A stretch of 19,035 bases of DNA from positions 1 through 19,035 of the forward strand of contig JBNRMN010000005.1 in the NCBI GenBank assembly GCA_050309605.1, in the 5' to 3' direction. Source of the stretch: Anaerohalosphaeraceae bacterium. GTDB taxonomy: Bacteria; Planctomycetota; Phycisphaerae; Sedimentisphaerales; Anaerohalosphaeraceae. The notes beneath the pieces were generated by a model, which was given only the letters and a program-made list of their open reading frames with translations, was not told where the DNA came from and searched no databases. Below are positions 1 through 16,781 of the stretch, piece after piece (the first letter of the stretch is position 1; the number at the start of each line of letters is the position of its first letter). Made by a program: the position numbers and the translations under genes.

Positions 1-18
1 TTTGGAAGTCTCGGTCAT
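1..18 (-). CDS. 5' end of a probable transposase (partial, MTETSK)
   Basis: ATG at 18 downstream of a TAnnTTTG motif and abutting a 13-bp hairpin. Only 6 codons are visible. Confidence 0.35.
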
Positions 19-60
19 AGCATTGTAATTAAGAGTTTGCACTACAAAATTACAATGCTA
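18..60. repeat. 13-bp perfect inverted repeat (TAGCATTGTAATT / AATTACAATGCTA, 17-nt loop)
   Basis: 18-30 is the exact reverse complement of 48-60. It overlaps the putative promoter and translation-initiation region. Confidence 0.9.
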
Positions 61-120
61 TTTTTTTGTCTAATCATGTCGATTTAACTTTTCCGATTTT
101 TGTCGATACAAAATTACCGA

Positions 121-2280
121 TTACACCTGTCCGACATCACCCTGCGCATAGCGCCGCAACGCGATGTTCATATTGTTCTTGATGCCGATGTAGTCCACCA
201 CCAGGCCCTTGTCTTTTCCGGGATAGACCCGGTTGACCCGCGAAATGGTCTGCACCAGCGTATGCTGCTGCAAGGGCTTGTCGATGTACATCGTATCGAG
301 ACAGTCCACGTCGAAACCCGTTGTCCACATATCGACAACCAGCGCAATCTTGAAATTCGACTTGGGCTTTTTGAACGCTTCGGCATAGGCACGGCGGTCT
401 TCATCCGTACCCAACAAATCGTACAACGCCGGTTCATCGTCCTTGTTGCGGGTCATGATCAGCTTGATCTTTTCGACAGGACGCTCCTGCCCCTCGCCGA
501 CATCACTCCCTTCCGAAACCGATTCCGGCTCGGGTAGTTGCACCCACTCGGGACGCAAGGCAATAATCTTCCGATAGAGATCAAATGCAATCGTCCGATT
601 CGCGCAGACAAACATGGCCTTCCCCTCCACCGTACTGCCCTCGGCAACCCGATTCTCATAGTGGGCAATAAAATCTTCGGCCACCGCCTGCAGACGATCC
701 GCATCCCCAAGAATCCGTTCCATCTTTGTAACGGCCTTCTTGCTCTCCTCAATCTGATATTCGTTCGCCCCCTCCTCGGCGCACTGCTTATAGTACTCCT
801 CTATCTCTTTGAGTTTGGCATGGTCGAGCAATACCTTTGCCGCGCGACCTTCGTAAACAATCCGCCGCGTGATGCCGTCCGCAACCGATTCGGTCATGGT
901 ATAGGCATCGACTACCTCGCCGAACACGTCAATCGTAGCATCAATCGGCGTTCCCGTAAAACCGACATAGGTTGCATTCGGCAGCGAATCGTGCAGGTAC
1001 TTGGCAAATCCGTAATTACGCTTGACACCCTTGTCCGTCTGCCTGATCTGCAACGAAAGATTGGTTTGCGAACGGTGCGCCTCGTCGGAAATGCAGATGA
1101 TGTTGGCCCGCTCAGACAACAGACTTGTATCCTCCGTAAATTTGTGAATGGTGGTGAGGAACACTCCTCCGCTTGTCCTGCCGGCCAGATGTTCGCGCAG
1201 CTTCTCCCGACTCTCCACCTCCACCACACACTCATCTCCAATAAACCGCTTGGCCGTGCCGAACAGTTTGGACAGCTGATCGTCCAGATCCGTGCGGTCC
1301 GTTATCAGTACGATTGTCGGACTGGCAAATTCCCGGCTCCGCATCAACATCCGCGACAGGAACAGCATCGTGATACTCTTTCCGCACCCCGTCGCGCCGA
1401 AATAGGTGCCACCTTTGCCATCCCCGTCCGGGCGGAGTTTGGAGTGCAGACGGATATTCTCGAACAGCTTGTGCGCAGCAAAGAATTGCGGATAACGACA
1501 AACGACTTTCCGTTCATCCTTCGACGAATCCGGAAAAAAGACAAAGTCTTTCAGCACGCTCAACAGACGCTCTCGCCGGAACAGCCCCTGCATCATCGTC
1601 TTCAGCGAGTTGATGCCGTCAAGAGCCCGCTCTTCGGCGTGAACCTTGCGCCATGCATAGAAAAAGTCGTAGGGAGCGAACAGCGAGCCGTATTTGTTGT
1701 TCACACCGTCACTGATAACGACAAACGCATTGTATTTGAACAGCTCGGGAATATCCCGCCGATACCTCACCGTCAGCTGCCGATAGGCATCCATGATGGT
1801 TGTCTCCTCCTTGACGGCGCTTTTGAACTCCAGCACGACCACCGGCAAACCGTTCACATAGACAATCCCGTCGGGAATACGGGTCTCCGCCCCTTTGATC
1901 TCCAACTGATTGACAACCCGGAAAATGTTGTTCGACAGACTCTTCCCGCCAAAGTCAATCGGTTCGACATACAAATCGGGCAGCGAGCTGTCGTCGCGCT
2001 TCAACGAAAACCCCTCGACCATCAGCCGATAGGTATGCAGATTGTTTTCATACAACGAGAATCCCACATTGGCGGTGAGTTTGGCCACGGCACGCTCGAT
2101 TTCGAGCGGTGTGATTCCGGCCTCATCGTAGCGACCGCGGAGATAGGCCCGCAAATCGTCGCGCAGCAAGACATCGCTCACCTCCTTGTGAATCTCTTCA
2201 CCGTTTGTATAGATATAACCCTCCTGCTGGAAAAGCTCCATAATGGACATCTCGAGGGCATGTTCGTTAAAGAATGCCAT
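121..2280 (-). pseudogene. hsdR: Type I restriction endonuclease subunit R, C-terminally truncated (719 aa)
   Basis: HsdR N-terminal nuclease motif (PDGIVYVNGLPVVVLEFKS), Walker A (ATGCGKS), DEAHRSQ, FTGTP, TTGFD, QTISRVNR. It ends just after the helicase core (VVDYIGI...GDVGQV*), lacking the ~300 aa C-terminal region usual for ~1000+ aa HsdR. Confidence 0.85.
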
Positions 2281-2285
2281 AGTTA

Positions 2286-2681
2286 TTAATCACAAAGATC
2301 CTTGATCGCTTGAACAATAGATGATCCTTGCCACTTGACGATTCGATCGGCGTTATCTTTTACTTTTTTAGACGTGCGCTCTGCCCCCCAAGGCTCAATG
2401 GCAATAATGGGTTTCGCATACTTCTTAGCTATTAGAATCTCTTTGTCAATCCATTTGCTATATGATGAATAAACACCAGCTAATATAAGAACGCAACTTA
2501 CGCCTTTAACTTTAGCATCAATAGCATCTGTTAATTGTTTGTCTGTTCCATTAGTATGAACCGGATCATTTCGCGGAATAGAATGGTTGTAATAGTCAAG
2601 ATGTTGGCTGTCTAACAGTTGGACTAATCTGTCATATGCGTCGCTATATGACCATGAATGGCTAATAAATAATCTGTACAT
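2286..2681 (-). CDS. TIR-domain protein, MTH538/DUF1863/ThsB-like (131 aa)
   Basis: N-terminal LFISHSW strand, CVLILAG, SKWIDKEI with the catalytic-position Glu, and KPIIAI: the typical ThsB-like TIR pattern. Confidence 0.85.
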   Translation of the reverse strand: MYRLFISHSWSYSDAYDRLVQLLDSQHLDYYNHSIPRNDPVHTNGTDKQLTDAIDAKVKGVSCVLILAGVYSSYSKWIDKEILIAKKYAKPIIAIEPWGAERTSKKVKDNADRIVKWQGSSIVQAIKDLCD

Positions 2682-2683
2682 AA

Positions 2684-3889
2684 CTAGTCTTTTATGTTTA
2701 ATATAATATTTTTTTGATCATTAAATGATTGTAGTTTCCATTCTTCCGGACGAAGTCCTATGAATTTAGTCTCATAGATAGTAGCGCGTTCTTTATCTCC
2801 GCATGCTAAATAAGAGTTGGAGAGTGTTGCATATTTCCATATAATATCATCAGACTCATCACTAATTGTTTGTAGTAAGTTAAGAATGATTTCTTCAAAA
2901 ATCTTTCTTGAACCAACTTTATAATAAATTCGTTCTTCATCGACTTCTTTTCTTGACATCTCTAACATGCAGGTAGCATAATTCTCTCCTGTGTAATAAT
3001 CGCTGTAAAGATCCCATCCTTTTTTGTAATTTTCAATAGCCTTATTTAAATATGCAGCATCCCGAGATAGCCGCCATAATCTTTTGTATATGGCGCCTAA
3101 GATTCCGAGTGTTTCAGTGTCGGTCGGATTAGATATTTTAGAGATGATTGTTAATGCGTCGGTTAATGCACTATATTCAGACGGTTTTTTACTTTTATAA
3201 GTGCATAACGCTTGTTGTTGAATATAATAATTTTCATTCTCAACGGTTTCACTTAATCTTTTCCATATATCGGCAGCCTCAACAAACCGATTATTTTGCA
3301 TATGTAATTTTGCCTTTTCTGTTAATGCATATATACTATTTTCATTATCGCGTAACTCTTGTATTATTGCCTCCAAAGCCTCTTCTTCGATATATGGTTG
3401 TGTTATTTGAGGTATGTAAGAATACAGCGGACTATCTGTAATAGGATTGTCTATTATAGTTTTTATTAGGCTCTTTAACTCTGTGATACATCGTTGCGCT
3501 TCTTGCTTGGATATTTCATTGCCAAGGTGTTCATAGTTAAGAATTCTGTTATGGCCTATATCAAATGGAATCTTTCCAGGACCTTCTTTTATAATAATTG
3601 TAGAATATTTTTTTAGGGTATGTCGTACCCCTAATTCATATAAAGCATTTGGATTGTCAGTAGAAATGTCAGCAATGACCAAATCTGCTTTATATAAAAG
3701 GGCATACATACTTCTATCAATAATCCCTGATTCGGTAATTTCGTCAGCACGCACACACCTTATATCTGCAGCTTCTACTGCTGGACGAATAATACATTTA
3801 TATGTTTGATCTAAGTCAATGGTTCTATTCGTTTCAGGGTCTTTCTTTTTACCAAAGCCCATGACAACAAAGCATATTTTCTTTTCCAT
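2684..3889 (-). CDS. Nucleoside 2-deoxyribosyltransferase-like domain + TPR protein (DUF4071 / MAP3K TRAF-binding, ASK1-like), ~401 aa
   Basis: CFVVMGFG...IIRPAVE...RADE...ADLVIADISTDNPNALYELGVRH (NDT-fold signature with Glu), then a helical TPR region (ETLGILGAIYKRLW, AIENYKKGW, DYYTGENYA, WKYATL). Start placed at Met10 of the ORF-track call, 10 bp after the upstream stop. Confidence 0.8.
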   Translation of the reverse strand: MEKKICFVVMGFGKKKDPETNRTIDLDQTYKCIIRPAVEAADIRCVRADEITESGIIDRSMYALLYKADLVIADISTDNPNALYELGVRHTLKKYSTIIIKEGPGKIPFDIGHNRILNYEHLGNEISKQEAQRCITELKSLIKTIIDNPITDSPLYSYIPQITQPYIEEEALEAIIQELRDNENSIYALTEKAKLHMQNNRFVEAADIWKRLSETVENENYYIQQQALCTYKSKKPSEYSALTDALTIISKISNPTDTETLGILGAIYKRLWRLSRDAAYLNKAIENYKKGWDLYSDYYTGENYATCMLEMSRKEVDEERIYYKVGSRKIFEEIILNLLQTISDESDDIIWKYATLSNSYLACGDKERATIYETKFIGLRPEEWKLQSFNDQKNIILNIKD

Positions 3890-3899
3890 ATCAGTACAA

Positions 3900-4499
3900 T
3901 TATTTGGGGTATACAATTACTTCGCTGGCAATTGGTTGCGCTCGTTTATCGAAGGCTTTATCGATATATAAATTAGGATTTTCTACAAAATCATCCCACT
4001 TGACTAAAACACAATAACGATCATCTTCAGCATATGAACATTTGCCATGGCTATTCAGATAGTAATTTCTATTAAACTCTTTAATTGTTGTATTATCATT
4101 TACCGCAACATGTTGGTGCTCTTTACCACATGTATTACACCTATATGAGCCTTTATATATCTTATCATACAATGCAGGTAACACAACTCCAAGTATTCCA
4201 TTTCTGGTGTTGTTTGCACCATTGTATAGTGAGGCTTGTAATTCTCGTTTAATAAAGCGTTGTTGATACCAACCCAAAGACTCGGCACTGCGTGCCCCGA
4301 TTAAAAAAATCGTAACCGTAGAGTCCGATAAATAATCCTCGCGAATTTTTCGCATAATATATTCTTCATTATCCGAATCTATGGGCTCGTTTAGTGATTT
4401 GTCAATCATATCGACTTTATTATCATCAACCCAACTTTGTATGGTCTCTTTGTACCATTTGTCTTCCGTCTTAAAGGAGATAAAGCATTTGTGTCCCAT
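3900..4499 (-). CDS. TIR-domain protein, DUF1863/ThsB-like (199 aa) with a CxxC-containing insertion
   Basis: KCFISFK, IMRKIREDYLSDSTVTIFLIG, FIKRELQASL (catalytic-position Glu), NGILGVVLP. Also carries CNTCGKEHQH. Confidence 0.85.
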   Translation of the reverse strand: MGHKCFISFKTEDKWYKETIQSWVDDNKVDMIDKSLNEPIDSDNEEYIMRKIREDYLSDSTVTIFLIGARSAESLGWYQQRFIKRELQASLYNGANNTRNGILGVVLPALYDKIYKGSYRCNTCGKEHQHVAVNDNTTIKEFNRNYYLNSHGKCSYAEDDRYCVLVKWDDFVENPNLYIDKAFDKRAQPIASEVIVYPK

Positions 4500-4511
4500 A
4501 TTTTCTTCATT

Positions 4512-5585
4512 TTATAGCCCCATCTTTGCCAATAGCAAAGACTGTAATTCGGTTAGTATTGATTGTTCTTCGTTCAGTGTTTCGAGGTATTTATAAACGC
4601 ATTCTATTCTGGTATTGAATGCAACTGCAATATCTTGGGGAGGGATTACACATTCTTGATTATTCAAAATCGCTTGTGTAAGCAATGGCTGACCGGATCC
4701 TTCACTTTGACTATTCAAATCCATTCTGTTGATTGTTTGATAAAGATAATAAGATAAATCGGAATGAGCAATTCCAATTATCGCATTATCATTCACCCAA
4801 CAATTTTTAGTCTCTAAAAATATACTTCCGCAGTTAATGCCTACTCGCCCAATGATTACTACATTTTTAGCATTGGACGCACTGCAATATCCAACTATTC
4901 CATTTCCACCATAAATCGGAATGTTACCCAATCCTTTTTGAACAGCTTTGCCGTTCTTAAAATCCGCAATTTCTCCCAATGTTCCCACACGCCAGCCGGC
5001 GGGGAGATGCTCGGGGTCGATGTCGTCCACAAACATCTTGCGGTAAAGCGTTTGCGCCGTGGCCTCCAGCTGCGCAATCATCGAACGATTCAGGTCGATA
5101 CGCCGCGACAACGTCTCATATTCCACAACCATCGCCCGCTGACGCTCTATCGACGGAATACAAACCATCGTTTCGCATAGTTCATCCCAATTATATCCAC
5201 CTCTCACCGATGAATCTGATTTGAAGTCTGCATACCTATCGAATTCTGCTCGGCGAAACCACATCATCAAATATTGAGGATTTAGCAAATCAACATCTAT
5301 ACTCTCGAATGTTATATATGCCGGCGAAACGATTATGGGAGAATCTGTTTCATTTAGCGCAATAGGAACCTTATGCACTCGAATAACAGACATGGGGTCA
5401 AAGGCAAATACATTATTATTTACGACCTTGTACTTGCTCAAATCAACACCCACAATATTTGATGTCGATGGACGAAACCGCTTTGTCATACTCAAACCAA
5501 GCAGATTCGTTACCGCCAAATCCCGATTCCGGACATCCACCTCCCGGATGTAATTCCCCAGCCGTTTATAATCACTTCTGTTCAT
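4512..5585 (-). CDS. hsdS: Type I R-M specificity subunit S
   Basis: Two TRDs separated by a conserved spacer (IPSIERQRAMV...LEATAQTLYRKMFVD..LPAGWRVGTLGEI); IGRVG, GSGQPLL and terminal LTELQSLLLAKM. Likely start MNRSDYKRLG at 5585, overlapping the hsdM end. Confidence 0.9.
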   Translation of the reverse strand: MNRSDYKRLGNYIREVDVRNRDLAVTNLLGLSMTKRFRPSTSNIVGVDLSKYKVVNNNVFAFDPMSVIRVHKVPIALNETDSPIIVSPAYITFESIDVDLLNPQYLMMWFRRAEFDRYADFKSDSSVRGGYNWDELCETMVCIPSIERQRAMVVEYETLSRRIDLNRSMIAQLEATAQTLYRKMFVDDIDPEHLPAGWRVGTLGEIADFKNGKAVQKGLGNIPIYGGNGIVGYCSASNAKNVVIIGRVGINCGSIFLETKNCWVNDNAIIGIAHSDLSYYLYQTINRMDLNSQSEGSGQPLLTQAILNNQECVIPPQDIAVAFNTRIECVYKYLETLNEEQSILTELQSLLLAKMGL

Positions 5586-7173
5586 GGGCGGCATCGTTTT
5601 GCTGGTGAACATCAAGCGGGTAGCCCAAATCCGTAAAGACCTTTGCCAATTCGCGGCGACTCTCCGTTTCGGCCTGCAGCAGGCGGTTCAATTCGTTACG
5701 CAGTTCCGTCATCCGGATCTCGAAATCGACCGTTTCATCCCGATTGACAAACTCGATGTATTTGCTGGGGACAAGCGACCATCCTTTGGCTTCGATCTCG
5801 TCGAGTGTGGCCGAGTAGCAATACTCCGGAACATTCCGATAGGTCTGTTCGTAGCCTTCACGCTGCCAGTTGTGGAAGTTCTCGGCAATACGGGCAATCT
5901 GCTCCTGCGAGAACTGGATATACTTCTTTTCGAAAGGCTCACCCCACTGGCGGAGGTCGACAAACAGCACTTCATTTTCGCGATCCCGGTATTTAACCAG
6001 TTCGCCGTTCTGCTCAACGGTACGGGCCTTACGGTTGCGGGCCAGAATCCACAGGGTGACGCTGATGTCGGTGGAATAGAACATATTGCGCGGCAAAATC
6101 ACAATGGCCTCGACTAGATGGTTTTTCAGCAGTTGACGGCGGATACTCAACTCCGTACCGTCGCCGCTCAACGCACCATTGGCCAGCAGGAATCCGGCCA
6201 TGCCGTTTGCCGAGAGTTTCGAGACGATATTCAGAATCCAACCGTAATTGGCATTACTCGTAGGCGGTACGTCATACCCCTGCCAGCGCGGATCCTTGGT
6301 CAGCTCGTTATCGGCCCGCCAGTCCTTCTGGTTGAACGGAGGGTTGGCCATGATGAAATCGGCCTTCAAATCCTTGTGCTGGTCGTCGTGGAAGGTATCG
6401 GCCGCCTTCTCGCCCAAGTTACAAGCGATACCCCGGATGGCGAGATTCATCTTTGCCAGTTTGTAGGTGGTGTTTGTATACTCCTGGCCATAGACCGAGA
6501 TATCTTTCCGGTTGCCGTGGTGAGCCTCGATGAACTTCATGCTCTGCACGAACATACCGCCCGAGCCGCAGCACGGGTCGTATATCTTTCCACGGTAGGG
6601 TTGAATCATCTCGGCAATCAGATTCACGATGGTCTTGGGCGTATAGTATTCGCCTTTTCCCTTGCCCTCGGCAATTGCGAACTTGCCCAGGAAATATTCG
6701 TAGACACGGCCAATCAGGTCGTGCTCCTTGTCCTTGAGGGTATCGATCTTGCCAATCACATCGAGCAGGCTCGCCAGTTTGATGCGGTCGAGTCCCAGAC
6801 CCGAATAATAGTTACTGGGCAAGGCTCCCCGCAAGGAGGGATTGTCCTTCTCGACCTGCGCCAGAGCCGCATCAATCTTGATGGCAATGTCGTTCTGTTT
6901 AGCATTCTCAATCAAATAGTCCCAGCGGCTGATTTCGTTCAGATAGAAAACATTCCGGGCGTTGTAGAACACCGCCTGGTCCACGAAGGCCGACTTACCA
7001 TCGGCAATCAGCTCATCACGTCGCTCTACAAAGCGGTCGTATGCATATTTGAGGAATATCAGACTCAACACCACATGTTTGTACTCCGACGGTTCCACTG
7101 ACCCCCGCAGTTTGTTGGCCGACTCCCACAAAGTCTCCTCGATACTTTTCTCTTTCAGTTGTTTCTTTGCCAT
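5572..7173 (-). CDS. hsdM: Type I R-M N6-adenine methyltransferase subunit M (533 aa)
   Basis: LWESANKLRG N-terminus, GEYYTP, YDPCCGSGGMF (SAM motif I), MANPPFN (catalytic motif IV). Confidence 0.95.
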   Translation of the reverse strand: MAKKQLKEKSIEETLWESANKLRGSVEPSEYKHVVLSLIFLKYAYDRFVERRDELIADGKSAFVDQAVFYNARNVFYLNEISRWDYLIENAKQNDIAIKIDAALAQVEKDNPSLRGALPSNYYSGLGLDRIKLASLLDVIGKIDTLKDKEHDLIGRVYEYFLGKFAIAEGKGKGEYYTPKTIVNLIAEMIQPYRGKIYDPCCGSGGMFVQSMKFIEAHHGNRKDISVYGQEYTNTTYKLAKMNLAIRGIACNLGEKAADTFHDDQHKDLKADFIMANPPFNQKDWRADNELTKDPRWQGYDVPPTSNANYGWILNIVSKLSANGMAGFLLANGALSGDGTELSIRRQLLKNHLVEAIVILPRNMFYSTDISVTLWILARNRKARTVEQNGELVKYRDRENEVLFVDLRQWGEPFEKKYIQFSQEQIARIAENFHNWQREGYEQTYRNVPEYCYSATLDEIEAKGWSLVPSKYIEFVNRDETVDFEIRMTELRNELNRLLQAETESRRELAKVFTDLGYPLDVHQQNDAAHEQK

Positions 7174-7262
7174 GCTTCAATTCTTTTCCGAACAACTCAC
7201 TTTCACCAACACGAATGCATTTTGATTCTTCAGTTGTCCGGTCTGTATTCATATATATTATA

Positions 7263-7270
7263 CAAATTTA
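7263..7270 (-). promoter_or_regulatory. Bacteroidota sigma-A -7 element (TAaaTTTG) for the hsdM operon
   Basis: Matches TAnnTTTG, ~90 bp upstream of the hsdM start. Confidence 0.55.
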
Positions 7271-7306
7271 CCAAAAATATCCGTGAATCACCTGTTTTCA
7301 GAGAAA

Positions 7307-7314
7307 TAACTTTG
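7307..7314 (+). promoter_or_regulatory. Bacteroidota -7 element (TAacTTTG), divergent, for the flavin reductase/helicase genes
   Basis: Matches TAnnTTTG, ~90 bp upstream of ATG 7407. Confidence 0.45.
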
Positions 7315-7406
7315 CGACATCCGCCTCAAAAAAGATTCGGATTTTGTCGAGTTGTCAAATTTTTGTAATTTTCGTAAAATCTCACCAATTAATTTCACAA
7401 TGTAAT

Positions 7407-7964
7407 ATGAAAAAAGACTTTGGATCGAAGAGTTGGCTCTATCCGATGCCGGTGCTGATCGTGGCAGCCTACGACGAGCAAGGTGTGCCCAATGTCATGA
7501 ATGCCGCATGGGGTGGCATGTTTACCGATGAGACAATCGGAATATGTCTCTCCGCCGGGCATAAAACCACGAAAAATATCCTTGCGACACGCGCCTTCAC
7601 TGTCAGCATGGCTACGGTCGACCAAGTGACGGCATGTGACTATGTAGGCATCGTATCCGGAAACAAAGTCCCCGACAAATTCGCCCGGGCGGGATTTCAT
7701 GCCACTACTTCGGCACATGTCAATGCCCCGCTGATTGACGAACTGCCCATGACGCTCGAGTGCGAACTACTCTCCTATGACCCCGAAAGCTGCCATCTGA
7801 CAGGACGTATCGTCAACATCTCGGCCGACGAAAGCATTCTTACCGACGGACAAATCGACCTGCGTAAATTGCGCCCGATCACCTACGATCCCATTCATCT
7901 CGAATACATTGAATTAGGAGTTACAGTCGACAAGGCTTTCTCCTGCGGCAAAAAACTAAAATAA
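7407..7964 (+). CDS. Flavin reductase family protein (flavoredoxin-like), 185 aa
   Basis: LYPMPVLIV, NVMNAAWGG, HKTTKNI...FTVS, CDYVGIVSG..DKF, APLIDELPMTLEC. Start MKKDFG at 7407. Confidence 0.9.
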   Translation: MKKDFGSKSWLYPMPVLIVAAYDEQGVPNVMNAAWGGMFTDETIGICLSAGHKTTKNILATRAFTVSMATVDQVTACDYVGIVSGNKVPDKFARAGFHATTSAHVNAPLIDELPMTLECELLSYDPESCHLTGRIVNISADESILTDGQIDLRKLRPITYDPIHLEYIELGVTVDKAFSCGKKLK

Positions 7965-7986
7965 CGGCACCTACCGCTATATCAGG

Positions 7987-10737
7987 ATGTACAACCCACG
8001 GGAAAATAGGATTATCATTGACGGAGAGGACAAAACCGACTCCGTCGAACGCTGTTGGTACACCTCAAGGCCCAACCGCTGCCAGGTCATTTTCTGTAAT
8101 TTCCCGAAGACCTACTCCTATGTCCCGAGCAAAGTGTTGTGGCTGAAGGATCCCGTGGTATTTGATCCGCAGCATTACCACCTGCTCTACAAGGGGCGCC
8201 AAATAGAGCCTCTCTCCTACATTGCCGCCTTTCAACAAGGTGCGCGGCGATTCTGGTACGTGGAATACGCCAACGGCACCGGTGCCCACTACAAGGGATC
8301 GGAGGTCGAACTCGTTCGGTCATGCCTGGAGGAGCCGCCCGCACAGGATCGCTTCGCCTATCTGCGCGACGTGGCGGAACTCAACCCACTAAAGACCGAC
8401 GACGGGCAGAAACTGCTGCTGATGCAGTACCAGAAGATCGACTTCGTCTCCAACCGTTCGGCAGCGGCCCTCTACCTGAATCCCGACAAGGACTCGCCCC
8501 GGCAATTCCCGGAGGCGCCGCTCATTTACCCCTTCGGGTGCAACGCCAGCCAGCAGAGAGCCATCCAGGCAGCCTTCGGGAATCAGATCAGCATCATCCA
8601 GGGCCCTCCGGGAACCGGCAAGACGCAGACGATCCTCAACATCGTGGCCAACCTTGTGGTGCAGGAGAAGACCGTGCTGGTCGTCTCGAACAACAACTCG
8701 GCCATCGAAAATGTGGTCGAGAAGCTGGAGAAGCAGGGACTGGGATTTCTCACCGCCCTGCTGGGCAGCCGTGAGCGAAAGACAGCCTTCGTCGAAACAC
8801 AGGCTATCGAGAAGTCCATTCCGGCCGAGATCGACTCGTGGTATTCGGCCGAAACCGACTCTCCGGAGTTTCTCCGCACCATTCAGTCCGAGGCTGAATC
8901 GTTGCAGACGGTTTTCGAACGACAGGAGCGGCTGGCTCGTGCCCGACAAGAGTTGACGGGGCTGCAAACCGAACAGCTCCATTTCGAGCAGGAGACAACG
9001 ATTGACTCATCCGTCACGCTTCGTCGGCAAATGCCGTCGGCCCGGCTGCTGATGCTGTGGAACGAATTGCAGGCCGCCGTCGAATGGCAGCCGAACGGAC
9101 TCTTCGACCGATGGCGCGACGCGGTCCGATGGTTTTTGCTCAAACGCCGCATCCGCCGCCTCTTCGACGGATTTCCCCGCCACCCGGAGCGGCAGGATCT
9201 CCAGCGGTTGATCCCTCTCCTCCAGCGCAGCTACTACCAGGTCCGGCAAGAGGAGCTCACGGCGGAGATCGACCGGATTGAAAAGCAACTTGCCACGTCG
9301 GACGCTCCGGCGATAGTGGCCCGGTTGAGCGACGACTCGATGCGCTACCTGCGCAGCCGTCTGGCCGGACGTTTCGGCAAAGGACACAAGCGACCGATTT
9401 TCCAGCACATCACCCCCGAGCTGCTCAAGGAGTACCCCGTCGTGTTGAGCACGACCTTCTCTTCGCGGTCGAATTTCCGGGCGTAGACGCTGTTCGACTA
9501 CGTGATCATGGACGAAGCCTCGCAGGTGTCGTCCGAAACAGGGGCATTGGCGTTAATGTGCGCCCGCAATGCGGTGATTGTCGGCGACTCGATGCAGCTG
9601 CCCAACGTCATCACCGATGCCGACCGGCTCTGCATGCAGGCCATCGCCGCCAAACACGCGATCGATCCCCGCTACGACTGCGCCGCGTTGAGTTTTTTGG
9701 AGTCCGTCTGCCGGGTCTTTTCCGAAGCGCCTCAGACGCTGCTGCGCGAACACTACCGCTGCCATCCGAAGATCATCAACTTCTGCAACCAACGCTTCTA
9801 CGGCGGGCGTCTGCTGATCATGACCGAGGATCACGGCGAACCCGACGTCATCACGGCGTGGCGGACTGCACCGGGGCATCACGCGCGGGGAGCGTTCAAT
9901 CCCCGCGAGATCGAGACGATCCGGCGCGAGGTGCTGCCGTCACTTCCCTGCGAGCCGGCCGAGATCGGCATTATCTCCCCCTACAACGAGCAGGTCAATG
10001 CGCTCCACCGCGAGCTGGGCGGAGGTGTTGACGTGGCCACGGTCCACAAGTTTCAGGGACGGGAAAAGGAGGCCATCATCCTGTCGACCGTCGACGATCA
10101 GATTACCGCCTTCACGGATGATCCCAATCTGCTGAACGTTGCCGTATCGCGGGCCAAGCGGCAATTTACGCTCGTCACTTCGAGCAACGAACAACCCGAC
10201 AGTCGCAACATCGCCGACCTGCTGGCCTACATCGACTACAACGGCGGCAAGATCACGGAGAGCGCCATTCATTCGGTTTTCGACCTGCTCTATGAACCCT
10301 GTGCCGAAGCGCGGCGGGAGTTTCTCAAACGGCACCGACGGATCTCGGAGTTCGACTCCGAGAATCTGACCTATGCCCTGTTGGAGCGGGTGCTGAAGGA
10401 TGAACCGGCATTCCGGAATCTGGGCGTTCTCTGCCACCAGCCGCTGCGACAGTTGATCCGCGACTGGACGCTTCTCAACGACGAGGAGCGCCGCTATACC
10501 TCGAACGGCGCCACGCACCTCGACTTCCTGATCTACAACCGGGTGAGCAAACGCCCCGTCCTGGCTATTGAGACCGACGGCTACCAATTCCACAAACAAG
10601 GCACCCGCCAATCCGAACGCGACCGGATGAAGGATCGCATCCTCGACCGCTACGGCCTACCGCTACTGCGCCTCTCGACCACGGGCACCGACGAGGAGGC
10701 GAAAATCAAGGATCAATTATCGAAGATTGTGGAATAA
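7987..10737 (+). pseudogene. Superfamily-1 (Upf1/Dna2-like, AAA_11/AAA_12) helicase with C-terminal DUF2726/Vsr-like nuclease domain, interrupted by an in-frame TAG at 9484-9486
   Basis: N-part: NASQQRAI, IIQGPPGTGKT, SNNNSAIENV. Same frame after the stop: TLFDYVIMDEASQ, VIVGDSMQLP, EHYRCHP, ISPYNEQ, TVHKFQGREKE, NVAVSRAK, and C-terminal HLDFLI...AIETDG..FH...ERDRMKD. Confidence 0.85.
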
Positions 10738-10786
10738 AACGCGCAAGATAGAGCACAAATGACCATAAACTCAATTATTTTTTTGT

Positions 10787-10794
10787 TAGCTTTG
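10787..10794 (+). promoter_or_regulatory. Bacteroidota -7 element (TAgcTTTG) for mcrBC
   Basis: Matches TAnnTTTG, 28 bp upstream of ATG 10823. Confidence 0.55.
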
Positions 10795-10822
10795 TTGTGA
10801 CTACTAACTAATACAACCTGCC

Positions 10823-12583
10823 ATGAACGAATATATCCAATTCAAACACCTTCTGGAGTACTTTGTCTCCCATCTGGAATGGACTGTCAACCAGAATACA
10901 TCTCACGTCGGATACCAAACCTATATCGCCCCTATTCCCAATTTTAAATATTCCGGACAGGGGTATGCCGGTGCCAACATCCAACATCAAATCGAGAATT
11001 GGTGCCAGTATGGCAAAGATCTGATCCACATCAATATAGATGCAAGAGGTTATACGACGACGCGCTGCTACATGAATTGGAACTGGACCTGGGTCAATGT
11101 CAGGCCCCATTGGATCAACACGGGTGACACGTACCATATTGATTCCTTGTTTCTGACCCAGGAACAAGGCTCCAACGCAAAAGCGGAATTAACCCGCACT
11201 TTGAGCGAATTGGGACTTTTCGACAATCATGAGCCAAATGATACATTAAAAGATTTTTTCAACACCTACAAGGATATGCTAAAATCATTTAACGATAAAG
11301 AAGAGATTCAGAACTACGTCCAGCTCCTTAAAGCCAACAAGAATCTAATTCTTACAGGCGCTCCGGGAACCGGCAAAACCTATCTTGCCAAACAGATTGC
11401 AAAGGCAATGGGCGCCGACAGCGAAGAACAGTGCAAAATGGTTCAGTTCCATCCTTCGTATGACTATACGGACTTCGTCGAGGGGCTGCGTCCGATCAAG
11501 AGCGATACTTCGGACCAGATTGGATTCGAACTCAGGCAAGGTGTTTTCAAGCAATTCTGCGAAAAAGCGCTGGAGAACTGGGAGGACAGTCGGAAAAAAC
11601 CGAAAGACATCTCAGCCGAACGAACATTCAAAGAGGCATACGACAATTTCATCGACGACATCAGAAACGGGGAAATCGCCGGGAATGAATTGAAGTTACG
11701 ATCCGAAGATGTGGCCATGAAAATCGTGGAAGTATCCGACAATAACAACATCATACTCAAGACAAAAGAATCAGACAGTAGAAAGACCTACACCGTCTCG
11801 TACAACCGCTTGAAGAAACTATCGGAGGCCTACAAGGACCTCAAAGCGCTAGATGAGATAACCAACATATATAAAGCGGTAACAGAGGCAATAAAGGGCT
11901 GTCACTCATCGGCCTATTGGGCGGCACTCCATTATATATACGAGCATTATGTAGGGACGGTCACTGCTGACGCAACTCCCGTCGAGGAGAAGAACTACGT
12001 CTTTATCATCGATGAAATCAATCGGGGTGAGATCTCCAAGATCTTCGGCGAACTATTCTTTTCCATCGACCCGGGATACCGGGGAGAGTCGGGACGGATT
12101 TTCACCCAATATCAGAACCTGGAGGAAGATTCCCCCTTCAACAATGGCTTCTTTGTCCCGGAGAACGTATATATCATCGGGACGATGAACGATATCGACC
12201 GAAGTGTCGATACGATGGATTTTGCCATGCGACGCCGCTTCGCATGGAAAGAGGTGAAGGCCACCGAACGACTCGGAATGCTGGATACTCTCGGGGCAGA
12301 CAAGACAGAAGCAATAACTAGATTGATCAATCTGAATGCAGCAATTGAAAAGATCGACGGATTGAGTTCCGCCTATCATATCGGCCCGGCATATTTCAAA
12401 AAGCTTGAGCTTTATCAGAAAGATACCGGACAGAAATGGGATCTGCTGTGGAATTATCATCTCAAAGGTCTTCTGTATGAATACCTTCGCGGATCCGACG
12501 AATTGGAAGCCAATATGCAGATTCTGAAGGATGCCTACGATTTGACAAAGAGAGACCAAGCTGAATCAGATGGTGAAAACTAA
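10823..12583 (+). CDS. mcrB: McrB-family AAA+ GTPase (type IV modification-dependent restriction), 586 aa
   Basis: NLILTGAPGTGKTY, VQFHPSYDYTDFVEG, FIIDEINRG, IFGEL, IIGTMNDIDRS (NxxD), DFAMRRRF, IGPAYF. Confidence 0.9.
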   Translation: MNEYIQFKHLLEYFVSHLEWTVNQNTSHVGYQTYIAPIPNFKYSGQGYAGANIQHQIENWCQYGKDLIHINIDARGYTTTRCYMNWNWTWVNVRPHWINTGDTYHIDSLFLTQEQGSNAKAELTRTLSELGLFDNHEPNDTLKDFFNTYKDMLKSFNDKEEIQNYVQLLKANKNLILTGAPGTGKTYLAKQIAKAMGADSEEQCKMVQFHPSYDYTDFVEGLRPIKSDTSDQIGFELRQGVFKQFCEKALENWEDSRKKPKDISAERTFKEAYDNFIDDIRNGEIAGNELKLRSEDVAMKIVEVSDNNNIILKTKESDSRKTYTVSYNRLKKLSEAYKDLKALDEITNIYKAVTEAIKGCHSSAYWAALHYIYEHYVGTVTADATPVEEKNYVFIIDEINRGEISKIFGELFFSIDPGYRGESGRIFTQYQNLEEDSPFNNGFFVPENVYIIGTMNDIDRSVDTMDFAMRRRFAWKEVKATERLGMLDTLGADKTEAITRLINLNAAIEKIDGLSSAYHIGPAYFKKLELYQKDTGQKWDLLWNYHLKGLLYEYLRGSDELEANMQILKDAYDLTKRDQAESDGEN

Positions 12584-13949
12584 TTCAGAGGTACGACAAT
12601 ATCGGATACGGGACTACGGAACGATTACAGTCCCGGAGATCGCCGTGTCCGATATCGAAAACTTCCAACATTTCGCCAACCGTTCCATCCAAGACCTGTG
12701 CAATAAGAAGAATTCTAATCTGCTCATCTTCCCGGATGTAGAACATCTTCTCAAAAACGGTATCGGAGAACAGACCATTTGCACGTTGGATGATACCCAA
12801 TTGCAAGCTGGGGATCTCATGGGGTTCATTGGTCGGGGCAACAGCCAGCTGACAATCAGCTCCCGGTTTGCAGTAGCAGATCAGGAGGATTATTTCCTGC
12901 ATTACATGGTTCAGCGGGTTTTCGATATCAATCTGTTCGATCTGAAACACGCGTCATCGAAAAACCGAATCTTCGACTTCCTGACTCTCTTATTTCCTTA
13001 CTACCTAAAAAGAGCGCTCAAACAGGGTATTTACAAGAAATACAAGACCATTGCACACAATGATGCAAATGTCAAAGGGGGCATCGATATTTCCAAACAA
13101 ATCCGACTGAATACTCCATTTACTGGGAGAATTGCTTACTCTGTCAAGGAGTTTTCCTATGACAATGAACTTACACAGTTGATTCGTCATACGATTGAGT
13201 GCATCCGGACCACACCGCAAGCATACGTTCTGAAGGCGGATCCAGATACCGAGGCTTTTGTCTTGCAAATCTGTCAGATAACCCCATCCTACAGTCAGCA
13301 AGCACGAAGAAAGATCATCTCCAGCAACCTGCGGCTGGTAACGCATCCATACTACGTCGCTTATCGTGAACTGCAGAAACTTTGCATCCAGATTCTCACC
13401 CACCGAGGGCTGAAATACGGTCAAAACAAGGATGACATCTATGGCCTTCTATTCAGTGGATCCTGGCTCTGGGAGGAGTTTCTTTATAAAACACTGCTCC
13501 ACGACTGTGGATTCCGACATCCGCAAAACCGCTTGGGCAAAGGCAGTATCTACCTCTTCGAAAAGGCTCCCTCATCTGAAATGGAGAGATACAGCCGTTG
13601 TAAACGATATCCGGATTATATCAAAGAGGACTTTATTCTGGATGCCAAATACAAGAAGCTGGATTCCGGGCACATCAATCGAGATGACATGCATCAACTC
13701 ATTTCGTATATGTATGTCGAGCAGGCCTCAAAAGGTGGATTCATCCATCCGCAACAGACGACACAGATCCAACCTGTTGTAAGGACGCTGGGGGCGCTGC
13801 GCGGTTACGGCGGAACCATCTATCTCATCGGGGTACCGATTCCGACCGGCGCAAAGTCTTACCAGGATTTTATTGAACAAATGCAACAAGCCCAACAGAG
13901 ACTAAAACAGAATATAAGACGCCTTGAAATCAACACATTTAATGAATGA
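12570..13949 (+). CDS. mcrC: McrC-family PD-(D/E)xK nuclease, 459 aa
   Basis: Overlaps the mcrB stop by 14 bp. Motifs ALKQGIYKKY, DNELTQLIRH, LWEEFL, YPDY...ILDAKYK, DMHQLISYM. Confidence 0.88.
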   Translation: MVKTNSEVRQYRIRDYGTITVPEIAVSDIENFQHFANRSIQDLCNKKNSNLLIFPDVEHLLKNGIGEQTICTLDDTQLQAGDLMGFIGRGNSQLTISSRFAVADQEDYFLHYMVQRVFDINLFDLKHASSKNRIFDFLTLLFPYYLKRALKQGIYKKYKTIAHNDANVKGGIDISKQIRLNTPFTGRIAYSVKEFSYDNELTQLIRHTIECIRTTPQAYVLKADPDTEAFVLQICQITPSYSQQARRKIISSNLRLVTHPYYVAYRELQKLCIQILTHRGLKYGQNKDDIYGLLFSGSWLWEEFLYKTLLHDCGFRHPQNRLGKGSIYLFEKAPSSEMERYSRCKRYPDYIKEDFILDAKYKKLDSGHINRDDMHQLISYMYVEQASKGGFIHPQQTTQIQPVVRTLGALRGYGGTIYLIGVPIPTGAKSYQDFIEQMQQAQQRLKQNIRRLEINTFNE

Positions 13950-13990
13950 GATCAAATGTCTTTTATCATCATGGAGCGTTTTTTGTAATA

Positions 13991-14458
13991 TCACCGCTTA
14001 TATAGATACAGCTCAAATCCTGAATTGCAAACCAGACTTGGATAAGGTAGTCTGACATTGCACTGGTAAGTGTATTTCCGATAGATGGGATGAAAACGAA
14101 ACCCCTCCTTCGTCAGATCTCGACGAACGGCAAAATAAGCTGTCCCGTGCGGAGCTAACAAATGGGCGATATCCATCATCACCTCGGCTTGTGCATAAGG
14201 TTCCAGTACGTTCAAGACATACACACACATAATCGTATCGAATTTCCCGTCGGGGTAATCCGGACGATAATAACAATCGTACCCAGTAATGTCGAACCCC
14301 TGCCGGCCTAGTTCATCTGTATCGAAACCAAGACCACATCCGAAATCAAGTATCCGCTCCTTCAGCAGACCATGCTGAAGCAGATAACGAGCCGGAGCCG
14401 ACAATCGCGTTCTCCGAATAGCCGTTAAATAGGGATGATTTATCTTTGCCGAATCCAT
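13991..14458 (-). CDS. Small class I SAM-dependent methyltransferase (155 aa; possibly a truncated MTase-HIT fusion)
   Basis: ILDFGCGLGFD SAM-binding motif, ITGYD, FDTIMCVYVLNV. Likely start 14458, 4 bp after the HNH gene stop. Confidence 0.8.
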   Translation of the reverse strand: MDSAKINHPYLTAIRRTRLSAPARYLLQHGLLKERILDFGCGLGFDTDELGRQGFDITGYDCYYRPDYPDGKFDTIMCVYVLNVLEPYAQAEVMMDIAHLLAPHGTAYFAVRRDLTKEGFRFHPIYRKYTYQCNVRLPYPSLVCNSGFELYLYKR

Positions 14459-14462
14459 CGTT

Positions 14463-15533
14463 TTAACCTTTCCAAATTTCAAATCCCATATTCAACGCAA
14501 TCTGGTGCATCGGAGTAAATGTCTGAAAGAAACAATCCATCAGATGCTCCCGATCCATATCGGCAATTTCTTGAGGAGTATGACCCATAGAAAGATAATC
14601 TTCCAATAATTTGTCCTGTTTCCCGATCTTCAGATTGATACGTAAAGCTGCTTGATGAGCCTCTGCCAATTTCGGAAGATACAAATTCAAATCGGGCAAA
14701 CGATTACTTTTGGAGCTATTGATACTCGGATCGGCCGGCATCAGGTTCCAAAGTAAATCGTGAGAGACAAAACTCCACGGGATAAAATGGTCCAATTCAT
14801 ATGCGCGTTCTTCCAACAGGGTTCCGGTATACAAGCATCGGACTTCCAGTCCGTGACTCATGGCGGTATTCCAAAACTTATGCTGAGCGGATAAGGAGTT
14901 TCGTTCTTCTCTCTTTACCAACTTATTAGGAATATTCGGAACATTCGGGTTCCTCACCTGTAAGAAGCCGGTTAATCCCCAATATGCAAAAGCGCTCAGA
15001 ATATCATAATTTTCTCTCAAATAGTCCAACCATGCTGGATTCAATTCTACCCATAACGCTCCAGGCTTTTTCTCCAATTTATAGAGACATCCGTTCTCGA
15101 ATGTTTGAGAGCGGATAACCGTTTGACGATCATCGGACGTATTGATCCACGGACGCAAAAAACGGAACGGAACATTCATTTGCAGAAAGTTTAACCGTTT
15201 TCGCACATCTGGTTGCTGAATAAGCTCATGCAACAAATCCGTCAAATCTCGGACACTGATATTGACGGGAATGTTATACTCTTTTTGCAAAGCCCATATC
15301 GCCTCATATAGGGATTCCGACTTTCCAAAAGAAAGACGGAAATAGATTACCGGATACCAGGCGTTTGCCACCATTGTAACCATAATCTCCCATACATTTA
15401 TCCTTGTTTTTCCCTGCCTTACAAACAAGTCGAGTATGCCGAGGAACCAGTAATATTTATATGTTGCCACGGTCTTGTCAAACACTCGGTTCAGATGTCT
15501 GGTTGTCAATATATGGGATTGTGGTATTTGCAT
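14463..15533 (-). CDS. HNH endonuclease domain protein (356 aa)
   Basis: C-terminal CLYTG...LDHFIPWSFVSHDLLWNLMP...INSSKSN HNH motif. N-terminal ATYKYYWFLGIL helical domain. Confidence 0.85.
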   Translation of the reverse strand: MQIPQSHILTTRHLNRVFDKTVATYKYYWFLGILDLFVRQGKTRINVWEIMVTMVANAWYPVIYFRLSFGKSESLYEAIWALQKEYNIPVNISVRDLTDLLHELIQQPDVRKRLNFLQMNVPFRFLRPWINTSDDRQTVIRSQTFENGCLYKLEKKPGALWVELNPAWLDYLRENYDILSAFAYWGLTGFLQVRNPNVPNIPNKLVKREERNSLSAQHKFWNTAMSHGLEVRCLYTGTLLEERAYELDHFIPWSFVSHDLLWNLMPADPSINSSKSNRLPDLNLYLPKLAEAHQAALRINLKIGKQDKLLEDYLSMGHTPQEIADMDREHLMDCFFQTFTPMHQIALNMGFEIWKG

Positions 15534-15558
15534 ATAAAAGATTTAATTACCTTAGTAG

Positions 15559-15566
15559 CAAAGATA
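15559..15566 (-). promoter_or_regulatory. Bacteroidota -7 element (TAtcTTTG) for the HNH-methyltransferase pair
   Basis: Matches TAnnTTTG, 25 bp upstream of ATG 15533. Confidence 0.55.
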
Positions 15567-15581
15567 ACAGAATAGTAGAAT

Positions 15582-16301
15582 TTAGAAGCACGCTTGCAAT
15601 CTTTTTATACCCAAATCTTTAATTGGGCTCGTTACATTGCCAAGTTTATTAACAATCTTTCCGTAGTCATTAATTAACTGTACAGCTTCGGATAAATGTA
15701 AGTTTTCTATAATATCTATCTGTGTACCTACATCCACATCCCTATGAGCATCTATACTATTTCTGACACGAGTTAATTCAGCAGTGTTTAACTCTCTAAA
15801 TTTAGTAAGTTCTTTTCGTGCATCAGCAAATGTTCCATAGTCATAATCTGGAAAGCAACGCTTTATAAATTTGATAATTTCAGCAGTAGTATCAACCAAC
15901 TTTTTTGAAGTTTCATATATCGCGGTATATGCTGATTTAATAACATCTAGCAGTTCCCATTCATCAATTCCGTCAGCAGACAAACGCTTCAAATATTCCT
16001 TCATTTCAATACTGGCCATTTGAATATGCCCCATTGTATTCCATATGAGTAAGTTATCTTTAAATGCAGACTTCTTTGTTTCATAGATAGGCAAAGAAGC
16101 TAAACTACACTTTTTAATTTGTGCTTCGCAAGCAGCAATATGATTCTTGCAATGACTTATACTTTGTCGGATTTGTTCGAGACAAGTTTGCTCCATTTTC
16201 AATGTTTCGTTGAGTGTGGTCTTTAATTCTTTTGCATTATCGTTTATCCGTTGCTCCAGGAAGCTGTCTAAAAGACTTTTTTTATATCTCATATATATCA
16301 T
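15582..16301 (-). CDS. Hypothetical all-helical protein with a candidate HEPN motif (RNSIDAH)
   Basis: 239 aa AT-rich ORF with an N-terminal coiled-coil-like stretch and C-terminal LTRVRNSIDAHRD = R-x5-H. Start could be 16292. Confidence 0.65.
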   Translation of the reverse strand: MIYMRYKKSLLDSFLEQRINDNAKELKTTLNETLKMEQTCLEQIRQSISHCKNHIAACEAQIKKCSLASLPIYETKKSAFKDNLLIWNTMGHIQMASIEMKEYLKRLSADGIDEWELLDVIKSAYTAIYETSKKLVDTTAEIIKFIKRCFPDYDYGTFADARKELTKFRELNTAELTRVRNSIDAHRDVDVGTQIDIIENLHLSEAVQLINDYGKIVNKLGNVTSPIKDLGIKRLQACF

Positions 16302-16523
16302 TCTCTTTTGTTTATTTCATCATTACCACTGATCTGTACATCTTTTTATACGTAGAATGCAGTCAACAGATAACAGGTAGTAAGGTACGCCACATAAACC
16401 ACATCAATAGCCCTACGCCGACTACCCAGTTTAATCAGTTCAAACATTACTTACTACTATTTTATGTTCCAATCTTCGCAGCTGCTCCGTATCTATGATA
16501 CTCTTTTCGCTATCAATAATACA

Positions 16524-16531
16524 CAAATATA
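16524..16531 (-). promoter_or_regulatory. Bacteroidota -7 element (TAtaTTTG), possibly for the 239-aa gene
   Basis: Matches TAnnTTTG, ~220 bp upstream of the ORF. Confidence 0.35.
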
Positions 16532-16575
16532 GTGTTTTTATTTAATGCTGAATACCAACATGTTCCGGAAACAGA

Positions 16576-16675: not shown

Positions 16676-16781
16676 AAATATTTTTCCGACCCCAATACAC
16701 CAAACAACAAGTTTCACGGCATATAAATTGATCTCCGCCCAAATTATTTCTAATAAGATTTCATTTATGAGCTTTTATTCT

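Follow-up and report, generated by a model that had tools for sequence, protein, structure and literature searches.

The DNA analyzed here, called the window throughout, is the whole stretch of 19,035 nucleotides (nt) at the start of contig JBNRMN010000005.1 of an Anaerohalosphaeraceae bacterium (assembly GCA_050309605.1, positions 1 to 19,035 of the forward strand). Six tightly packed minus-strand genes, from hsdM through hsdR, occupy its first 7.2 kb. Our subject is a cassette of three of these genes, at positions 2286 to 4499, which is probably a type VIII Thoeris antiphage system. In the preprint that describes this type (Yirmiya et al., bioRxiv 10.64898/2025.12.03.692087, December 2025), such a system consists of a TIR protein and ThsI, in which a “CMP hydrolase” domain is combined with a TPR domain. 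The first cassette gene along the minus strand, thsB-A (3900..4499), encodes a ThsB-type TIR protein of 199 amino acids (aa) with a C-terminal Cys-rich module (TIR-A; Glu86 codon at 4242-4244). It is followed by the thsI-like effector gene (2684..3889, minus strand), whose product has 401 aa counted from the ATG. This middle protein combines an N-terminal domain (N-domain) resembling nucleoside 2'-deoxyribosyltransferases (NDTs), DNPH1, and MilB (residues 1-165, encoded at 3395-3889; Glu85 codon at 3635-3637) with a TPR-S/ASK1-like helical repeat domain (residues ~170-400; Pfam TPR-S match at 2966-3286). The third gene, thsB-B (2286..2681, minus strand), encodes a minimal ThsB-type TIR protein of 131 aa (TIR-B; Glu81 codon at 2439-2441). 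A longer frame of the middle gene that starts at a TTG (2684-3916) is unsupported; the ATG start was preferred, as the alignments of homologues begin at residues 1-5 of the protein counted from it.

The cassette lies between the genes of a type I restriction–modification (R-M) system on the same strand. The methyltransferase gene hsdM (5572..7173; Pfam N6_Mtase 2.3e-97, HsdM_N 5.6e-19) is the first gene of the co-oriented block and is followed by the specificity subunit gene hsdS (4512..5615; Methylase_S 2e-12), while the restriction subunit gene hsdR (121..2280, 719 aa; HSDR_N, SWI2_SNF2, and T1R_D3-like matches) lies on the far side of the cassette. The gaps are 12 nt between hsdS and thsB-A, 10 nt between thsB-A and the thsI-like gene, 2 nt between the thsI-like gene and thsB-B, and 5 nt between thsB-B and hsdR. 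The GC content of the cassette genes is 0.34-0.35 (positions 2501-4500), versus ~0.54 in the flanking hsdM and hsdR. With a GC content about 20 points under that of its neighbors, the cassette therefore looks like an insert that the R-M operon acquired horizontally. The joint presence of the cassette genes, their motifs, and their domain matches is far beyond chance. A scan for promoters was not above shuffled sequences (18 sites vs 14.3 +/- 3.2), although the sigma-70 consensus may not suit this organism, and a scan for terminators likewise was not above shuffles (4 vs 6.7).

Domains of the cassette proteins

Both TIR proteins match Pfam ThsB_TIR well over its cut-off (TIR-A, E 3e-14, residues 6-109; TIR-B, E 4.6e-16) as well as the PADLOC ThsB1 model (8e-18 over residues 1-188 and 1.8e-12, respectively), and no BLAST similarity was found between the two. 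TIR-A carries a FIKRE motif (E86) and TIR-B a WIDKE motif (E81); the TIR catalytic glutamate is retained in each, as both align to a Glu of solved TIR proteins. For TIR-A, the best PDB match is 9vyl, named “cyclic ADP-D-ribose synthase TIR1” (E 1.9e-5). The Glu of FIKRE aligns there to the Glu of WIpwE, and the match reaches into the C-terminal part. TIR-B matches MTH538 (1eiw, 3.5e-5) and, weakly, 8wcf, with WIDKE aligned to WVkyE. Across 36 relatives of TIR-B, residues S7, G69, and E81 are invariant. Among 28 relatives of TIR-A, E86, C121, C124, and C154 are invariant, while H128 and C163 are at least 90% conserved, and this pattern of Cys and His residues therefore points to a putative metal-binding module behind the TIR fold. 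The TIR-A relatives are 57-76% identical to the window copy, and in some of the same loci the effector drops to 45%. Such conservation is unusual for a presumed phage sensor, where diversification is expected.

The C-terminal part of the middle protein matches Pfam TPR-S (PF20308) with an E of 2.6e-21 over residues 202-308 (76.6 bits vs a cut-off of 27.6). The protein also matches MAP3K_TRAF_bd (PF13281, formerly DUF4071) over its cut-off at 4.1e-7. A whole-protein AlphaFold2 model, built from 66 sequences, reached a pLDDT of 92.2, and the N-terminal 165 residues modeled alone reached 90.2. The top Foldseek matches of the whole-protein model are the ASK1 structures 8qgy (2.8e-7) and 5ulm (3.1e-4), at 14-17% identity, and the model also matches the TPRs of IFIT and kinesin light-chain proteins. 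A profile search of the middle protein reaches ASK1 5ulm as well, at 0.0034. The TPR region is the last part of the protein, which stops at residue 401, and no match to a kinase domain was found; in ASK-family MAP3Ks, a Ser/Thr kinase domain follows the TBD-TPR region, so that only the N-terminal module is common to the two.

In the N-domain, the motif ADLVIADISTDNPNALYELG is present, and the Glu of its YELG is E85. A profile search of the PDB with this domain found Rcl/DNPH1 at an E of 2.4e-5, with the ...NPN..YELG of the query aligned on the ...YELG of the enzymes. DNPH1 and ASK1 were reached with profiles only, as a phmmer search of the PDB with the whole middle protein returned nothing. 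In an alignment of 29 sequences, N79, N81, E85, F109, and D110 are invariant in the N-domain. The TPR part has invariant residues of its own, G301, N303, and W351. Foldseek placed the CMP N-glycosidase MilB first for the N-domain model (4jem, 9.3e-5), followed by a deoxyribosyltransferase, TIR-STING, and DNPH1. VIA-align placed two deoxyribosyltransferases first (Z 13.2 and 13.0), then MilB (12.6) and TIR domains (12.4-11.5). On its sequence profile, the N-domain is assigned to the NDT/DNPH1/MilB (DrHyd) superfamily, with Glu85 as the putative nucleophile in a conserved motif after strand 4.

A flavodoxin-like fold, a Glu at the nucleophile position, and dimerization characterize enzymes of this kind, and all three were found in the N-domain, the dimer by prediction. 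The two-copy prediction gave ipSAE values of 0.74, 0.75, and 0.74 in three runs, versus 0.00 for the best of three controls. The runs share at least 96% of their contacts, the partner pLDDT is at least 81, and the dimer is symmetric. Its interface lies on the Glu85 helix (residues 58-66, 75-92, 108-111, and 154-171). In the calibration of the tool, 20 of 30 proteins solved as same-chain pairs passed the mark used, versus 1 of 23 single-chain structures. The modeling thus supports a symmetric homodimer formed by the N-domain through the E85 helix, although the pass may mirror a likeness to the NDT and DNPH1 dimers that have already been solved.

No SIR2 or macro-domain effector was found among the window proteins in a Pfam scan, and SIR2_2 had no match in the genome from which the window comes, which is 99.7% complete. 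The cassette thus lacks the SIR2-SLOG ThsA or TM-macro effector that marks type I and type II Thoeris. In NCBIfam, none of the three cassette proteins had a significant match. The original prediction for this DNA, made without database searches, is upheld by these results in its description of the locus: three co-oriented AT-rich genes spaced by 10 and 2 nt, two dissimilar ThsB-like TIR proteins that keep the catalytic Glu, an NDT fold fused to TPRs in the middle protein with a likeness to the N-terminal region of ASK1, and no ThsA-type effector in the window.

Relatives and genomic setting

For the comparison of gene neighborhoods, we used 83 related loci, of which 3 are from genomes and 80 are metagenome contigs (the best 80 of 557 confirmed relatives). 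These loci are not independent, and several are near-identical. An adjacent, same-strand ORF with a Pfam TIR match was found in 67 of the 83 loci, with one on each side in 31. Where there was room on both sides of the effector gene (56 loci), at least one TIR neighbor was present in 51 and TIR neighbors on both sides in 30. A TIR gene lies one or two genes away in five more loci (L008, L068, L080, L098, and L114). Two loci with room on both sides, L112 and L113, have no TIR gene, and each adjoins a transposase. The order of long Cys-rich TIR, effector, and short TIR recurs in relatives whose effector is just 45% identical. The original prediction had proposed a check of neighborhood conservation, and the genes are indeed co-conserved.

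A tblastn search of plasmids gave 73 records, mostly from Pseudomonadota, of which 41 had one place covering at least 80% of the query; all were under 60% identity, with values up to ~50%. The full-length plasmid relatives that lie beside TIR genes are 39-50% identical and come from Pseudomonadota. For example, plasmid pA7J1 of Pseudomonas sp. has a plain two-gene form, with an effector that is 49% identical over its full length (E 3e-138) and a single TIR of 134 aa that is 31% identical to TIR-B (E 5e-22). An E. coli IncP plasmid carries the order effector, TIR, TIR, DUF4231, and a Vibrio plasmid the order TIR, DUF4231, TIR, effector. Genes for SLATT/DUF4231, the type VII effector, also occur in the clusters of seven related loci (L056, L062, L067, L068, L079, L105, and L114). 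A SLATT search of the window's own genome was silent, as were the control genomes.

The family is large, with 16,647 representative proteins at an E of 1e-3 or better and 297 at 1e-30. The genome scan with a single-protein query found only 2 loci, and an alignment query would reach further. In a sample of the phylum, 36 of 401 genomes match at an E of 1e-10 or better. Besides the window's own genome, only one of these (G122) has a full-length match, which contains one in-frame TAG; in the remaining matches, the N-domain is fused to other C-termini. Among the 17 fused long forms scanned, no Pfam TIR was found in the extra N-terminal part and, by that test, no Rosetta-stone fusion. The parts of the effector also occur in other combinations. 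In locus L098, a neighboring protein (1939-3450) has an alpha/beta-hydrolase in place of the NDT domain, joined to TPR-S; in other relatives, the N-domain and TPR-S are joined to nSTAND1, or the N-domain is joined to WD40/CHAT parts. TPR-S on different enzymatic heads is the pattern expected if TPR-S were the signal binder, and these fusions fit TPR-S as a putative constant, signal-binding part with the N-domain as an exchangeable enzymatic head. Two related loci have further neighbors. The cluster of L076 (2405-3493 and 4708-6534) encodes a patatin phospholipase and a pentapeptide-repeat protein that carries a TIR at its C-terminus; like the alpha/beta-hydrolase–TPR-S protein of L098, these are further candidate Thoeris parts. 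In L057 (4711-6704), genes resembling those for 5-hydroxymethyldeoxyuridine (5-hmdU) DNA kinase and thymidylate synthase follow the cassette, which places DNA-hypermodification pathway genes beside a putative nucleotide-targeting effector.

Outer flanks were scanned for 47 loci, using 67 of 108 listed flank ORFs after exclusion of apparent duplicates and short ORFs, and type I R-M genes were the immediate neighbors of the cassette in 12. In L001 and L002, type III and type II R-M genes lie directly upstream. A near-identical metagenome contig, L037, carries a cassette that is 99.85% identical and keeps its three frames intact, and its hsdR is also 99.85% identical. However, this contig is without the counterpart of window positions 4860-6403 (~1.5 kb), so that hsdM lacks its 3' part and hsdS its 5' part, and the residual hsdM is just 95.6% identical. 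Between strains, variation is seen in the R-M part of the locus and not in the Thoeris part. The hsdR of the window ends at 719 aa, 120 nt from the contig start, without its C-terminal domain. The open frames of homologues from related genomes span 673-1090 aa, mostly >1000, and in L037 (5604-6542) the frame runs on to 802 aa with T1RH-like_C. The two sequences diverge at about window position 125, where an assembly break, a mobile-element junction, or a rearrangement may lie. Beyond hsdR, positions 6129-6542 of L037 are 86% identical to window positions 18493-18908 in reverse orientation, which hints at a repeated element bounding the island or at an island arranged differently. An empty hsdS-hsdR site was sought among 40 related genomes, and no orthologous site was found (the best HsdR match was 38% identical).

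The rest of the window adds further defense genes. A split superfamily 1 (SF1) helicase is encoded on the plus strand in two ORFs that lie 15 nt apart (7987-9486, with AAA_11, and 9502-10737, with AAA_12 and DUF2726). Both match PADLOC MkoA/MkoC (Mokosh) and PDC-S37 and have the highest GC of the window, ~0.61; this may be a frameshifted or a naturally split defense helicase. It is followed on the plus strand by genes for a McrB-like AAA_5 GTPase and McrC (10823-13949) and for a HipA-family kinase toxin (17157-18431), which confirm the window as a defense island. On the minus strand, a second AT-rich patch (14463-16301, GC 0.34-0.37) holds an HNH_4 endonuclease gene (356 aa) and an ORF of 239 aa with no Pfam or PADLOC match; the two are possibly a further, unnamed defense pair.

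The stretch that holds the cassette is also found in public sequencing data. It is present at full word share in the DNA runs of seven studies (P1-P7), any of which may be the source of the window; these are landfill, activated-sludge, anaerobic-digester, and unspecified metagenomes. In metatranscriptome libraries of four further studies, contigs with at least 99% identity span the cassette, and each of its four junctions is bridged. In window coordinates, the hsdS/thsB-A junction is bridged by contig X15 (4246-4785), the junction of thsB-A and the thsI-like gene by X15 (3834-4177) and X16 (3722-3945), that of the thsI-like gene and thsB-B by X16 (2595-2958), X17 (2604-2820), and X18 (2546-2939), and the thsB-B/hsdR junction by X17 (2156-2540). 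This is compatible with the transcription of the cassette and the flanking hsd genes as one unit.

Probable assignment to type VIII Thoeris and rival readings

We read the cassette as a two-sensor type VIII Thoeris (thsB-A, thsI-like, thsB-B) that was horizontally acquired and sits between hsdS and hsdR in a defense island, and we give this reading a probability of about 0.8. ThsB-type TIR genes in the effector operon, a CMP-hydrolase (NDT-superfamily) domain, and a TPR domain tied to TIR signaling are the marks of this type. Here, two TIR genes flank the effector gene; the domain has MilB as its top Foldseek match, NDT at Z 13.2, and DNPH1/Rcl at 2.4e-5; and TPR-S is taken as the domain meant by Burroughs & Aravind 2020, whose prediction is credited for the role of the TPR domain in TIR signaling (cited in 10.64898/2025.12.03.692087). 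The full-length identity of 49% to the Pseudomonas sp. plasmid protein that is paired with a TIR gene serves as a proxy for homology to the tested ThsI proteins. The cassette is thus probably a further example of a known system, not a new one. The original prediction had proposed a candidate new system and had named a match to an already characterized one as a ground for giving this up. The claim of novelty falls because Yirmiya et al. have named and validated this architecture. The placing of the NDT-TPR protein in the effector slot by the original prediction is strengthened by the ThsI-like layout and by the co-conservation with TIR genes.

What is published on type VIII supplies much of the proposed mechanism. 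According to 10.64898/2025.12.03.692087, E. coli was protected by two systems, one from Yersinia enterocolitica (Ye11102_2) and the other from a metagenomic Pseudomonas scaffold, after cloning of each as an operon that contained the TIR. The TIRs, even when expressed alone, made canonical cyclic ADP-ribose (cADPR) only upon infection, and cADPR in the medium halted the growth of cells carrying the systems, while 2'cADPR and 3'cADPR did not. That ThsI acts on the nucleotide pool and that its TPR domain perceives cADPR are hypotheses of those authors, who also describe the co-occurrence of the SLATT effector ThsH (type VII) with ThsI and the particular abundance of type VIII in Pseudomonadota. 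Our literature searches returned no paper besides this preprint that names type VIII Thoeris or ThsI. Two divergent TIR proteins that feed one effector have a precedent in the type I Thoeris of B. dafuensis, where, according to Ofir et al. (10.1101/2021.01.06.425286), TIR1 and TIR2 are without BLASTP similarity, respond to different sets of phages, and give additive ranges through one common effector.

By analogy with these relatives, each ThsB TIR of the cassette would be inactive at first and, on detecting a sign of phage infection specific to it, would turn NAD+ into a cyclic ADP-ribose signal, most likely the canonical N1-cADPR. The signal would bind the TPR-S repeat domain of the ThsI-like protein and switch on its dimeric NDT/DNPH1/MilB-like N-glycosidase domain, which, with Glu85 as nucleophile, would cleave the base-sugar bond of a nucleotide. 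The loss of nucleotides would starve phage replication and arrest the cell, and the two unrelated TIRs would act as two sensors for one effector and broaden the range of phages sensed. That cADPR is the signal and that two ThsBs give an additive range are both carried over from the published relatives and should be taken as provisional here, and we infer the signal-binding domain, the substrate, and what each TIR senses. For the substrate, we lean tentatively toward a (deoxy)nucleoside monophosphate such as CMP, at somewhat under even odds; NAD+ or an ADP-ribose (ADPR) derivative is possible, if more doubtful. The original prediction had also considered the TPRs as phage sensors. This has become less likely because supplying cADPR in the medium sufficed to stop growth in the type VIII systems that were tested.

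Several points weigh against this assignment or restrict it. It was made by described architecture and by relatives in Pseudomonadota, and the comparison with the tested ThsI proteins is by description only; a defense function for this locus would likewise be taken over from the published relatives. The nearest relatives are Bacteroidales metagenome-assembled genomes (MAGs), whereas the preprint stresses Pseudomonadota. PADLOC 2.0.0 is without a model for this effector, and the sole real PADLOC match of the N-domain is to a model labeled “Effector TIR” (residues 18-131, 3.9e-8). The fold scores of the N-domain do not separate NDT (Z 13.2) from TIR (12.4), and it is therefore the sequence profile that places the domain in the superfamily. 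The ThsB class that TIR-A resembles is also present in other Thoeris types, beside other effectors, and the product of TIR-A may not be cADPR. Finally, contigs from RNA libraries can hold DNA and give no strand, level, or single transcript.

Among the alternatives, the one that we take most seriously, while holding it doubtful, keeps the same signaling layout and makes the N-domain a TIR- or DrHyd-type NADase that destroys NAD+ or processes ADPR derivatives. It would explain the “Effector TIR” match and the presence of TIR-STING TIR domains among the best fold matches (Foldseek 4.2e-4, Z 12.4 vs 13.2 for NDT), and Iyer/Aravind-lab text assigns the role of NADase effector or ADP-ribosyl cyclase to the DrHyd members of conflict systems. 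However, the only sequence-level PDB matches with an E <0.01 are DNPH1/Rcl, which act on deoxynucleoside monophosphates; the top Foldseek match is the CMP N-glycosidase MilB; and the preprint annotates a CMP hydrolase and hypothesizes manipulation of the nucleotide pool. Far less likely is an exchange of roles, in which a phage protein would be sensed by the TPRs of the middle protein, with the TIRs as adaptors or as effectors that deplete NAD+. Protein binding is common among TPR arrays, the model also matches the IFIT and kinesin light-chain TPRs, and in other systems TIR domains serve as NADase effectors. Yet the type VIII findings above, with cADPR made on infection by the TIR alone and toxic by itself to system-carrying cells, run the other way, as do the minimal, ThsB-type form of the cassette TIRs and the fusion of TPR-S to heads as varied as NDT, alpha/beta-hydrolase, and nSTAND1.

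The setting of the cassette raises the question of whether it is coupled to the type I R-M system in the manner of PrrC or Ronin, that is, co-transcribed with hsdMSR as a fallback that is set off by a phage disabling or engaging the restriction complex, with the highly conserved, Cys-rich TIR-A as the monitor. The same-strand nesting with gaps of 12 nt to hsdS and 5 nt to hsdR, the RNA-library contigs across both outer junctions, the type I R-M neighbors in 12 of the 47 flank-scanned loci, and the type III and type II R-M genes that abut the cassette in L001 and L002 all speak for such coupling, and there are precedents in the type I-embedded TgvAB of V. cholerae VPI-2, whose defense genes lie in a type I R-M operon, and in PrrC/EcoprrI and Ronin, neighbors of type I R-M that can be functionally coupled to it. 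Despite this, we consider coupling unlikely. The L037 cassette is intact at 99.85% despite the missing parts of hsdM and hsdS, many relatives (including the plasmid loci L117-L119) have no R-M neighbor, and the tested type VIII operons, by the preprint's account, worked in E. coli when cloned; moreover, defense genes cluster for other reasons, and the loci are not independent. That the cassette is an inert remnant of horizontal transfer without a present function is the least probable of these readings. The low GC content of the cassette and the truncated neighboring hsdR could be taken as signs of decay, but the three frames are intact with their catalytic residues, and the sequence occurs in DNA runs of the seven studies, allowing that any may be the window's source, and in RNA libraries of four further studies.

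Significance and comparison with known systems

If the cassette is a two-sensor type VIII Thoeris, then this type extends past Pseudomonadota to relatives in Bacteroidales MAGs, in a stable three-gene form. The cassette offers a compact natural pair of sensors for one effector, which is useful for asking what each TIR detects. Residues N79, N81, E85, F109, and D110, together with G301, N303, and W351 and the predicted dimer, are concrete targets for mutation in ThsI, whose activity the preprint treats as a hypothesis. What keeps the locus of interest is its conserved two-sensor layout, with a Cys-rich TIR, its nesting between hsdS and hsdR, and the substrate of the effector. The frequency with which type I R-M genes adjoin the cassette offers a lead on layered defense, and, were the improbable coupling to R-M true, a TIR signaling system would be triggered by the state of another immune system. 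Aravind-lab text (PMC8195603) derives components of the ASK signalosome from conflict systems of bacteria. The module in common with ASK1 raises the possibility that the animal kinase may also respond to TIR-made nucleotides.

With TgvAB, PrrC/EcoprrI, and Ronin, the locus has in common extra same-strand defense genes between hsd genes; unlike in those cases, the embedded module would be a TIR signaling system, and L037 argues against a strict link to R-M. The N-domain resembles DNPH1/Rcl, MilB, and the nucleoside 2'-deoxyribosyltransferases in fold, in the YELG motif with its nucleophile Glu, and in the predicted dimer through the Glu helix. While these are free-standing metabolic enzymes, the cassette domain is fused to a putative sensor and has its own invariant N79, N81, F109, and D110. 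The likeness to the N-terminal regulatory region of ASK1/MAP3K5 (8qgy, 5ulm) consists of the best whole-model Foldseek match and a MAP3K_TRAF_bd match over the cut-off, whereas the middle protein is without a kinase domain and identity is merely 14-17%.

Among the Thoeris systems, the type I system of B. dafuensis (ThsA with TIR1 and TIR2) is alike in its two divergent ThsBs without BLAST similarity and its one effector, and the best PDB match of TIR-A carries the name “cyclic ADP-D-ribose synthase TIR1”. It differs in that the cassette effector is not SIR2-SLOG and in that the expected signal would be N1-cADPR and not 3'cADPR. Type VIII Thoeris is alike in its TIR gene beside a CMP-hydrolase/NDT-like and TPR effector, in its defense-island setting, and in the SLATT genes that are sometimes found in the operon. 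Compared with the type VIII systems described so far, the cassette stands apart in having two unrelated ThsBs that flank the effector, one of them with a Cys-rich C-terminal module, in its nesting within a type I R-M operon, and in its closest relatives, which are Bacteroidales MAGs rather than Pseudomonadota.

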